Source: Naegleria gruberi
Lineage: Eukaryota
Reading direction: 5' to 3' (one strand)
DNA: 64,000 nt
Assembly: GCA_000004985.1 (NCBI GenBank)
Contig: GG738849.1
In this document: positions 58,106 through 61,258 of the stretch, piece by piece
Layout: each line of letters opens with the position of its first letter
How positions within the stretch are numbered: the stretch's first letter is position 1
Translations under genes and position numbers: made by a program
The notes under the pieces: model-generated
Seen by the model: the letters and a program-made list of their open reading frames with translations, nothing else
The model's database searches: none
What the model was told of the DNA's origin: nothing

Positions 58106-58760
58106 ATGACAACAACTCTTGTACAAGACCCTATTGTTTGGGTTGACATGGAGGTAAGATAATAGCCACTGACCACAATTCACACAATTAATTCTAAATA
58201 GATGACAGGATTAGATATTGATTCCGATCACATTTTGGAAATTGCAGTCATTATTACTGATGGTAATTTAAATATTATTGCACAATTGGATTCATTGATT
58301 GTTCATCAGAGTGACTCTGTTTTAGATAATATGAATGATTGGTGTAAACAGCATCATGGTGATAGTGGTTTGACTGCTGCCGTTCGAAAGAGCTCATTCT
58401 CCATTCAGCAAGTTGAGGATACAGTCTTGGATTTTGTTAAACACTATGTTGCATCGGAGAGATTGGCTCCATTGGCTGGTAACAGTGTTTATTGTGATAG
58501 ATTATTTATGAAGTATGTTAATTTCTTTATTATTTTGTTAATAATATTTTAATTATTTTAGAAAGGAAATGAAAAGATTAGATGAATATTTGCATTATAG
58601 AATTATTGATGTTTCTTCAATTAAAGAGCTTGCAAGAAGATGGTCACCTGAAACTCTTACCAAGGTTGTAAAGACTGGAGCCCATAGAGCACTTGATGAT
58701 ATCAAAGAATCTATTGAAGAATTGAAAGTTTACAAAAAGCATCTATTTAAATTGGAATAA
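58106..58760 (+). CDS. Oligoribonuclease (REXO2/Orn, DEDDh 3'-5' exonuclease). Three exons: 58106..58153, 58202..58512, 58562..58760.
   Basis: …PIVWVDME|[21 protein letters not shown]…[12 protein letters not shown]|[27 protein letters not shown]… is collinear with Orn (DxE…, H-x4-D). Introns of 48 nt (GTAAGA…ATAG) and 49 nt (GTATGT…TTAG). Confidence 0.85.
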
Positions 58761-59124: not shown

Positions 59125-60248
59125 ATGTTACCTTCCTTAAACGAATTGATTAAAAAGTTTGACGAATTTAAAGACAAACAAAGGTTGAATACTGATATTC
59201 ATCAGAATTTGAAACCAATAGATGTTAAACCAATAGTAGATGTTGCTTCTCCTGCATGTTACCCTTCATCATCCCATACTCAAAGAGAACCACCCATCAT
59301 TCATTCTAAATATTACTCTTCAACAACATGTAATTCTCTAAGATCTTCATCTAATATTTACCAACCATCACCACACAATCACCCTCATCAGCTCCATCAT
59401 TACCCTAGTCATCTTCAGCAAACCTCATTCACCAAAGTAATGCATGTGGATCATGATCCAAGCTATTTTGAATCTCTTCATTATCATACTGGAGGTCATG
59501 AAACGATAATTAGCAATAATAGTCTTGCACAAATTGTTGAGCCACCGCCACATGCTCTTAGTGACATGCCACATGCCCTTCCTCCAACTTTGGAAATGTG
59601 TCCAACAACTTCTAGTAATAATGCATCTTCGTCGATATGTAATAAGCAAACTTGTTTCCTTCCTTCTTCATCTCAAAGTACATTCACGACGGATGCAGCA
59701 AATAATAGATCAAATAGCAATAGTCCAAAAAATAGTTCTTCACAGAATAGTTCCACAAACTCTTTCCAGTCCTCGTTTAATGTAAATAAGAAAATTCCAA
59801 AAAGCAAAATTTCCAAAAAATCAAAAGAACCCATTCAATTCAAAGCATTTTCCATCTCATTAGATACATCTAAAATCAAATTTATCAATGAGCAACATCA
59901 GAAAATTGGGATTAATGATGGATCATGGACTGAGCAGGAACATGCCAATTTCATTCGAGGTTTAAATGAATGTGGAAAAGGAAAATGGAGAGAAATTGCA
60001 GAGGGTTATGTTAAGACAAGGTAAGTTGTCCAAGTTACCTGCTCGTGTTAATCGAATCGTAAATCCCTAATTATAACTATATTTCATGTTAATTGAATCT
60101 TATTTCTTTCCCCTTAGAACAAGGTAAGTGATTTCATTTTAATCGAATCCTAATTCTATCCTAATTCTTCCTTAGAACTCAAGTTGCTTCGCATGCTCGT
60201 AAATATTTGAAAATGCTTGCAAGGAAAACTAAATCTTCAATTAGATAA
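59125..60248 (+). CDS. Single-repeat Myb (SHAQKYF class) DNA-binding protein with a long low-complexity N-terminal region. Three exons: 59125..60020, 60118..60123 (6-nt microexon), 60176..60248.
   Basis: …GSWTEQEHANFIRGLNECGKGKWREIAEGYVKTR|TR|TQVASHARKYLKMLARK… With the 6-nt exon AACAAG included, the spacing matches the TRT-x-TQVASHAQKYF consensus exactly. Skipping it is also in frame but 2 aa short. First ATG at 59125 (the ORF-track start at 59095 is TTG). Confidence 0.6.
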
Positions 60249-60409
60249 CCATATTGATTATACTTCTTATAATATTCAATAATCCCCGTTCATTCAAGAA
60301 GAATAGAGGAGCCAACCTTCTTTTATAAATCTTAATTCGCACAATATTTGGCAACTTCGCCATCAAAGAATCGGATTATACGTATATTTTGTTGGAAGTG
60401 GATAAAACC

Positions 60410-61258
60410 TTATTTGTTTTTCTCCACTTCAAATATAGATCTCTCTCTCTTTTTACAGCCCACCTTAATCCACTCTAAATCACTCAAAAACCATTCTCTG
60501 TGCTGCTTGACTTCATCTAATGAAATGTTTTTTGTATTCCTATAAAGTGAGTGTATCATCATAGGATTTCCAATATTATTGTCCTTGGTATGGCTTTGTT
60601 GTGTGTTGGAATCTGCAGCACTCTGAGGAGAAGGAACAAATGAAGATGTTTTTAGAATCTTGTTAAGCCAATCCAAATTTGGAGTGGGCAACGCGTCGTT
60701 CATTGGTTCGTTAGTGGTATTAACACCCTCTACAATTGAAGATTTACAAAACTTGTTTGGGTTTACATAAATCAATTGTTTGCAATATTTTTCCTTAATT
60801 TGTTCATAGTCAAAATTTTGCTTTGGTCCATAATGTGAAATTTTCATTACTCTTTCTTCAATATCATGAATGGATTGTTCTCCAAAAATTGTAGACCAAG
60901 TTTTTAATAATTTCAAGTATTTAATTTGAATATTCAAATCTATTTGTACTTTGAATGAGTAAAAGAACAAGTCCGAAATTCCAGCACTAAATTCATCAAT
61001 ATATTCTCCTCCAATATTTTTAATAATTGAATCTAATAAATAGAGACTCGGAAGTTTCTCCTCTGCACTTGCTGTTTTAATTCTTGTAGAAATAACTTTT
61101 GCAATAGATTTACAATATTTAATTTCCTCCCTAGCAATACTAGTCAATTTTTTAATATCCATTAACGAATTGGTTTTTAAATCCTTCTGTAAGGAGAGAG
61201 AATATTTTTGTACAATACTACCTTCCGATGATGATTGGGGCTTGTTGAATTGTTTCAT
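60410..61258 (-). CDS. CID (RPR) domain protein, RPRD1/Rtt103-like. 282 aa, single exon.
   Basis: ATG at 61258. N-terminal CID …KLPSLYLLDSIIKNIGGEYIDEFSAGISDLFFYSF… (cf. Pcf11/Rtt103 …KLP.LYL.DSI.KN.G..Y...F…) followed by a predicted coiled-coil C-terminus. Confidence 0.65.
   Translation of the reverse strand: MKQFNKPQSSSEGSIVQKYSLSLQKDLKTNSLMDIKKLTSIAREEIKYCKSIAKVISTRIKTASAEEKLPSLYLLDSIIKNIGGEYIDEFSAGISDLFFYSFKVQIDLNIQIKYLKLLKTWSTIFGEQSIHDIEERVMKISHYGPKQNFDYEQIKEKYCKQLIYVNPNKFCKSSIVEGVNTTNEPMNDALPTPNLDWLNKILKTSSFVPSPQSAADSNTQQSHTKDNNIGNPMMIHSLYRNTKNISLDEVKQHREWFLSDLEWIKVGCKKRERSIFEVEKNK

Follow-up and report, generated by a model that had tools for sequence, protein, structure and literature searches.

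A predicted six-nucleotide microexon between two related introns in a SHAQKYF-class Myb gene of Naegleria gruberi

The 64-kb stretch of Naegleria gruberi DNA analysed here (contig GG738849.1 of assembly GCA_000004985.1; hereafter the window) is AT-rich (~33% G+C) and gene-dense, and at 59125-60248 on its plus strand lies the gene NAEGRDRAFT_46243, whose product is deposited as an N. gruberi 'predicted protein' (XP_002681697.1, EFC48953.1, UniProt D2V2T4; P0001 in our protein search). The gene is an N. gruberi single-repeat Myb gene of the SHAQKYF class. Toward its 3' end the coding sequence appears to be interrupted by two introns of related sequence, held apart by six coding nucleotides (nt), AACAAG. 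The explanation that we favor for the locus as a whole, and that the sequence comparisons given below make very probable, is that the hexamer is a microexon and that the correct coding sequence is join(59125..60020, 60118..60123, 60176..60248), encoding 324 amino acids.

The Myb gene, its predicted introns and its orthologues

Exon 1 (59125-60020, plus strand) is an open frame that runs from the ATG at 59125 to 60020, where it ends in the residues WREIAEGYVKT followed by the AG of an Arg codon (final codons GTT AAG ACA AG), and it is 100% identical to the deposited protein across its length. The predicted intron 1 (60021-60117, plus strand; 97 nt, phase 2, GTAAGTT...CCCCTTAG) begins with GTAAGTTGTCC, finishes with TTTCCCCTTAG and has a branch-like TTAAT at 60089-93; it falls at a point where the orthologues are contiguous, and the public gene model removes it as well. 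The candidate microexon AACAAG (60118-60123, plus strand) supplies the third base of that Arg codon, ACA for Thr, and the first two bases of the Arg codon after it. It is followed by the predicted intron 2 (60124-60175, plus strand; 52 nt, phase 2, GTAAGTG...TTCCTTAG), which begins with GTAAGTGATTT, finishes with TTCTTCCTTAG (CCTTAG), has branch-like CTAAT at 60150-54 and 60161-65, and on removal carries the protein on into TQVASHARKYL, as in the orthologues. The last exon (60176-60248, plus strand) contributes the third base of the second Arg codon and then TQVASHARKYLKMLARKTKSSIR; it opens with AACTCAAGTTGCTTCGCATGCTCGTAAATATTTG, read as A ACT CAA GTT GCT TCG CAT GCT CGT AAA TAT TTG ... TAA, and the stop TAA occupies 60246-60248. 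A preliminary description of the locus had given these coordinates, the intron lengths of 97 and 52 nt and the 6-nt spacer, and all of its strings were found to be correct base for base.

Both introns are in phase 2, each dividing an AG|A Arg codon, and the exon context of the two is identical, ACAAG^AAC, over 5 nt upstream and 3 nt downstream. Retention of either one leads to AGG TAA, an immediate in-frame stop.

Candidate introns elsewhere in the window were collected as GT[AT][AT]GT...YAG intervals that join two long open frames and have a stop inside them, and the shortest solution was taken for each donor. This screen yielded 17 others, all of 43-71 nt but for one of 98 nt, with a median of 49. 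At the 5' end, 15 of the 17 read GTAAGT or GTATGT, mostly with T as the next base, and at the 3' end 13 of the 17 read TTAG or ATAG; many have, as judged by eye, a TTAAT, CTAAT or TTAAC about 10-25 nt before the 3' end. Both units of the Myb gene conform to this local GT-AG consensus, and both interrupt coding sequence that is contiguous in homologues, with the frame restored on their removal. Intron 2 is typical in length, at the mode of the candidates, and intron 1 stands at the long end, while the 155 nt of the single intron that skipping of the hexamer implies exceeds all 17. Close by, an RNase T-type exonuclease gene (58202-58561, plus strand) also shows an apparent interruption by one of the 17 candidates, of 49 nt (GTATGT..TTAG, 58513-58561).

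In a protein search the spliced product matched no more than three proteins, those of N. gruberi (P0001), N. fowleri (P0002) and N. lovaniensis (P0003). P0002 and P0003 were 78-79% identical over the C-terminal quarter, identity and coverage being confined to the C-terminal 24%, and in an 89-residue C-terminal alignment of the three species the identity to N. gruberi was 76-77%. All three proteins have one C-terminal Myb domain, the likeness among them reaches upstream of this domain (FSISxDxSKIKF..QHQ..GINDGSW), and an N-terminal LPSLNELI motif (LPS..L) is common to them. Because no other protein passed the threshold, we treated the three as orthologues. No synteny was seen within the flanks between the N. 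gruberi locus and those of N. fowleri and N. lovaniensis. The genes flanking the latter two, an SLC52 riboflavin transporter and a faint PAP2-like match, have no counterpart anywhere in the window, and the order of genes around the locus has thus not been conserved.

The N. fowleri and N. lovaniensis genes are intronless, with 1386 nt for 461 amino acids plus stop and 1419 nt for 472 amino acids plus stop, respectively, and both genomic ranges translate to the query protein. In both, the protein reads KTRTRTQVASHAQKYF on uninterrupted DNA, AAA ACT CGA ACG AGA ACT CAA (KTRTRTQ), and continues with VASHAQKYF. The N. gruberi domain fits the T-[KR]-T-x-x-Q-x-x-SHA-x-KY spacing of the SHAQKYF class. 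The helix 3 signature at 60198-60215 is SHARKYL in N. gruberi (5/7 residues) and SHAQKYF in N. fowleri and N. lovaniensis. The C-terminal tail differs as well, being KMLARKTKSSIR in N. gruberi as against ANKKF/ANKKY in the sister species; SHARKYL and the differing tail may reflect a changed DNA specificity or relaxed constraint.

Predicted retention of the hexamer in the mRNA and the relatedness of the two introns

With AACAAG included, the spliced sequence is KTRTRTQVASHARKYL and reads KTRTRTQVASHARKYL, and with the hexamer skipped it reads KTRTQVASH. The earlier proposals that inclusion restores the Myb spacing and that skipping is likewise in frame, at the cost of two residues, are both borne out. 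Inclusion raises the Pfam Myb_DNA-binding score from 39.8 to 45.1 bits (+5.3; curated cutoff 24.4) and that of the TIGR01557 SHAQKYF model from 39.2 to 45.7 bits (+6.5; curated cutoff 29.3). The segment VKTRTRTQVASHA / TRTRTQVASHA is invariant in the three-species alignment only under inclusion, and the included form aligns here without gaps to the SHAQKYF Myb 6nvz (GTKTVVQIRSHAQKYF), to 1x41 and to the c-Myb repeats. A metagenome scan for Naegleria-like loci gave one distant relative (41% identity), which informs the spacing, not the dating of the introns, and which keeps an identical spacing, TRSTTQTRSHAQKYF / ATRSTTQTRSHAQKYF. Orthologues lacking the two residues had been named as evidence that would speak against the microexon, and N. 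fowleri and N. lovaniensis both have them. Since TRTRT is contiguous in both of these orthologues, the two residues are taken to be ancestral, and inclusion is what is needed to obtain the conserved protein sequence, with TR-TR as in the orthologues.

The position of the hexamer points the same way. By simple count, ~16 of the 4096 possible hexamers (~0.4%) would encode the third base of Arg, a Thr and the opening two bases of Arg, and the one found here, besides encoding exactly the missing residues in phase, is flanked by TTAG and a perfect GTAAGT. The public gene model, which is an independent prediction, also uses intron 1 and the donor at 60124. Exon 1 joined to AACAAG and to 60459-60468 translates exactly to the deposited 303-residue XP_002681697.1, ending in KTRTSPP*, and from this exact match it follows that the annotation software had itself taken out intron 1 and chosen the donor at 60124. 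The microexon is therefore already in the databases by way of XP_002681697.1, though with a wrong distal acceptor.

On these comparisons we hold with high confidence that the main mRNA keeps the hexamer: both introns would be spliced out, and the included form would be the main product. As to where the two residues would lie, a weak hint comes from an AlphaFold2 model of the N. fowleri orthologue, a low-confidence model with a mean predicted local distance difference test (pLDDT) score of 37 and values of 57-62 where the Myb region is modelled best. In that model helix 2 ends just before VKTRT and helix 3 starts at the second Arg, and, if it is right, the two residues would sit at the turn and the N-terminus of the recognition helix, in line with the preliminary description, which had placed them in the region of that helix.

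The two introns were compared with six terminal bases trimmed from each end before local alignment. The best local alignment is ungapped and pairs 60081-60111 with 60131-60161, with 26/31 positions identical (84%) and a score of 37. In 5000 dinucleotide shuffles the mean score was 15.6 (standard deviation 2.8) and the maximum 32, and the 136 pairs that the 17 other candidate introns form scored 14.9 on average and 25 at most. By this sequence measure the two introns are related beyond chance and beyond the generic intron signal. The 3' 44 nt of intron 1 and the whole of intron 2 run colinearly, with ~77% identity including gaps as counted by hand. In the same alignment ATAACT at 60074-60079 of intron 1 falls opposite the GTAAGT of intron 2. 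We also considered whether intron 1 might have arisen when two older copies fused, losing a microexon that had separated them, but the junction alignment is too weak to support such a claim.

The similarity is organized around a 23-nt module, TCRTKTTAATYGAATC (TC(G/A)T(G/T)TTAAT(C/T)GAATC...), which occurs in three copies starting at 60043, 60084 and 60134 with 78-83% identity. The first copy (TCGTGTTAATCGAATCGTAAATC; 60043-60065, plus strand), found by the repeat search, lies inside intron 1; the second (60081-60111, plus strand) falls in the 3' half of intron 1 and resembles intron 2 most closely; the third (60131-60161, plus strand), recovered by both local alignment and the repeat search, makes up the core of intron 2. 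Intron 2 further contains, according to Tandem Repeats Finder, an 11-nt tandem repeat, ATCCTAATTCT x2.5 (60147-60172, plus strand), which doubles the branch-like CTAAT. The shared blocks pointed out in the preliminary description are present in both introns, TTAATCGAATC at 60048-58 and 60139-49, and CCTAATT at 60066-72, 60149-55 and 60160-66. The branch-like TTAAT inside the module may explain part of its conservation, but ATTTCAT and GAATC on either side of it do not belong to the generic signals.

The window yielded no copy of the module outside this locus, only short chance matches; TTAATCGAATC at one mismatch or fewer gave 5 matches in the window against 2.25 expected, 3 of the 5 being in this locus. 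The sole exon-to-intron match is a 16-nt junction repeat, TTAAGACAAGGTAAGT / TTAGAACAAGGTAAGT, at 60011 and 60114. RNA structure across both introns was unremarkable, the minimum free energy being -19.6 kcal/mol where shuffles averaged -20.7 (z = +0.35).

Alternative readings of the locus

Where introns are short, the splicing machinery recognises each of them as a unit of its own, here over 50-100 nt, and the footprints of the spliceosome hardly allow a 3' and a 5' splice site to be occupied simultaneously when 6 nt separate them. Given that the 3' splice site of intron 1 is 6 nt from the 5' splice site of intron 2, factors on one of these sites should impede binding at the other, and sequential removal of the two introns is likely, and after either had been removed the remaining intron would have a neighbouring exon of normal size. 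If the donor at 60021 were instead joined to the acceptor at 60175, the hexamer would be skipped in frame. It can thus be asked whether the gene makes both included and skipped mRNAs in a regulated manner, the products differing in the turn between helix 2 and helix 3 and in DNA binding. Skipping preserves the frame and introduces no premature stop, and the identical splice contexts (ACAAG|GTAAGT and TTAG|AAC) make cross-pairing chemically equivalent. Exon skipping does occur in N. gruberi (PMC6142364, with the RNA-seq set ENA PRJEB23822), but the same cross-species survey found intron retention to be commoner than exon skipping in all species except one. Moreover, the residues that skipping would remove are invariant in the three Naegleria proteins, so that the short form, if made at all, would probably be non-functional noise. 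On account of this invariance and of the survey, we expect the skipped form as a minor by-product and not as a regulated one; alternative splicing of functional weight is unlikely, and regulated production of the two forms is a proposal to which we give little credence.

A second possibility concerns the introns themselves, which might be independent insertions of a dispersed introner-like family with a preference for ACAAG^AAC, and not a local copy. The shared insertion context and the related sequence would both be expected of such a family. Against it stand the confinement of the module to this locus within the window and the ordinary folding energy of the two introns, since introner-like elements of fungi have stable secondary structure (PMC3609843), and we regard independent insertion as distinctly improbable.

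Still less can be said for a single 155-nt intron (60021-60175) with internal repeats, in which AACAAG would never be exonic and the protein would read KTRTQVASHARKYL. Such a product is in frame, and it still scores as a Myb/SHAQKYF protein (39.8 and 39.2 bits). However, the orthologues and all the aligned Mybs have both of the residues it lacks, an AG and a perfect GTAAGT would by coincidence bracket a hexamer of the rare class (~0.4%) encoding exactly these residues, and the length is well beyond the 43-98 nt of the candidate introns in the window. We consider it very unlikely.

The public model itself, with the donor at 60124 joined to an acceptor at 60458 to give KTRTSPP*, 303 residues and a truncated Myb domain, has in its favor that it is the deposited one and that this acceptor is preceded by a long pyrimidine run, TCTCTCTCTCTTTTTACAG, but it is scarcely credible, as it discards the recognition helix conserved in both orthologues, passes over the good acceptor at 60175 that restores TQVASHARKYL, requires an intron of 335 nt where local candidates have 43-98 nt, and places a 10-nt terminal exon within the coding region of a real convergent gene. 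That false terminal exon (60459-60468, plus strand; C CCA CCT TAA), and with it the 3' end of the model's second intron (60124-60458), lies inside an open reading frame of the minus strand. The latter (60410-61258, minus strand; 282 amino acids) encodes a CID domain with a weak match to the Clp1-interaction domain of Pcf11, i.e. a Pcf11-like product, and its stop codon is ~160 nt from that of the Myb gene. The deposited model is wrong, its Myb domain being truncated and the recognition helix lost, and it should be replaced with the 324-residue join.

Several points weigh against the account that we prefer, in which the hexamer is a microexon between two introns related by duplication. An exact look-up of both spliced isoforms in a collection of 15 billion proteins found neither of them. 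Skipping of the hexamer is in frame too, and leaves the Myb score above threshold (39.8 bits against a cutoff of 24.4). The case for orthology comes from unique best hits and from sequence conserved beyond the Myb domain, synteny having no part in it, and the recognition helix of N. gruberi is atypical (SHARKYL), so that there may be some relaxed constraint. Finally, the comparison draws on two other species, with which a gain of both introns in N. gruberi is inseparable from one ancestral intron lost in N. fowleri/N. lovaniensis.

Origin of the arrangement and comparison with known systems

Since TRTRT is contiguous in both sister species, the coding content of the hexamer is older than the two-intron arrangement. 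The preliminary description had spoken of a microexon created by intron duplication, and of this the part that stands is that the introns are related by duplication, while the coding hexamer was not created by it: TR-TR predates the duplication, no residues were added, and six existing coding bases were cut off between two introns. Its further phrase, a tandemly duplicated intron, is supported by the significant similarity but needs qualification, the copies being unequal (97 and 52 nt) and the module present three times.

From the paralogy of the introns it follows that at least one of them is a gain of the N. gruberi lineage, copied from the other. We propose that a neighbouring intron was copied into the equivalent site 6 nt away, which would amount to a same-gene intron duplication, and that the copies then diverged by in-dels, intron 1 acquiring an extra copy of the module and intron 2 the 11-nt tandem repeat. 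The N-terminal three quarters of the protein could not be detectably aligned between species in the search; judged against such drift of the protein, the similarity that the two introns still have to each other indicates that the copying was later than the split from the N. fowleri/N. lovaniensis lineage. The other member of the pair may likewise be a gain of the N. gruberi lineage, or else an ancestral intron that disappeared from the sister lineage. The site lies ~70-130 nt from the stop codon, and intron loss by way of reverse-transcribed mRNA is considered most likely near such 3' positions.

The route of the duplication can be hypothesized along three lines, among which the data do not discriminate. 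In route (a), a tandem duplication at the DNA level of a 103-nt unit, ACAAG-intron-A, would yield three TR units and would then require the loss of 6 nt. The 16-nt junction repeat at 60011 and 60114 fits this route, as do the identical ACAAGA hexamers of N. gruberi, where the other species have ACT CGA / ACG AGA. A plain tandem duplication of period 103 was rejected as a full account of the locus, since three TR units would result from it and two are seen. In route (b), the repair of a break would have copied the intron by means of short microhomologies at both ends (ACAAG and AAC). In route (c), the excised intron would have been reverse-spliced into the identical site one register off in its own mRNA, with reverse transcription and recombination then fixing it in the genome. 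Routes (a) and (b) taken together are ranked above (c). Nevertheless, it can be speculated that the arrangement records the transposition of an intron within one transcript, with the identical ACAAG^AAC site as its target. A transposition of this kind would leave the protein without any gain of residues, whereas plain tandem duplication needs the compensating 6-nt deletion. We think it rather unlikely; if true, it would be among the cleanest natural examples of a route of intron gain that has long been proposed and rarely documented. The mechanisms of intron gain have been reviewed (PMC3488318).

The practical consequence is the correction of the public model from 303 amino acids lacking the recognition helix to 324 with a complete SHAQKYF-type Myb domain. 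It also implies that gene finders can mishandle 6-nt exons in Naegleria, and other truncated models may share this cause. As regards evolution, the locus offers a case of intron multiplication that can be dated, in a lineage outside animals, fungi and plants, with the intronless orthologues as the reference state, and its two identical ACAAG^AAC sites constrain the mechanism. By itself the case opens no new question.

Microexons, i.e. very short internal exons, are known in animals, plants and fungi. The AACAAG exon resembles them in being a tiny in-frame exon between canonical introns that gene finders are liable to overlook or mishandle; it differs in that 6 nt is at the extreme low end, and in that its origin can be traced to the entry of a second intron, by insertion or by copying, into a contiguous ancestral exon. 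Our literature search found no paper that relevantly links Naegleria with microexons. Among SHAQKYF-class Mybs (TIGR01557; PDB 6nvz), the protein has the above-cutoff score and the spacing of the class, and departs from it in SHARKYL.

The closest parallels for the introns are the same-gene intron duplications (SGD) that Collemare et al. catalogued in fungi in 2013 (PMC3609843), and which cite in addition some C. elegans cases as well as near-identical introns of Oikopleura. About half of the fungal SGDs were attributed there to segmental duplication including the exon flanks, and for the other half it was suggested that introns might have transposed inside one and the same transcript or been transferred from one paralogue to another. 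The N. gruberi pair is like them in that two introns of one gene are similar well beyond chance with the splice signals excluded. It differs in its heterolobosean host, in the 6 nt between the copies, and in the divergence of the latter (84% over 31 nt; 97 as against 52 nt). The full-length near-identity by which the fungal cases were defined is not seen, only the 3' 44 nt of intron 1 aligning with intron 2, and the coding sequence of N. gruberi is not lengthened relative to the orthologues. With Rogers-type gain, in which an exon segment bearing AGGT is duplicated, the pair shares the local duplication of DNA as the source of a new intron; however, the intron of that model consists of duplicated exon sequence, whereas in N. 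gruberi a pre-existing intron would have been copied, and the cores of the two introns have no match to exons, only the 16-nt junction repeat being shared. With the introners and introner-like elements of Micromonas and fungi it shares the presence of related introns at more than one position, but it has neither dispersed copies in the window nor a stable fold, and its length is ordinary. Neither a microexon nor a same-gene intron duplication seems to have been described for a specific gene in this lineage, and the locus is best regarded as a new example, tidy but small, of two things that are known.

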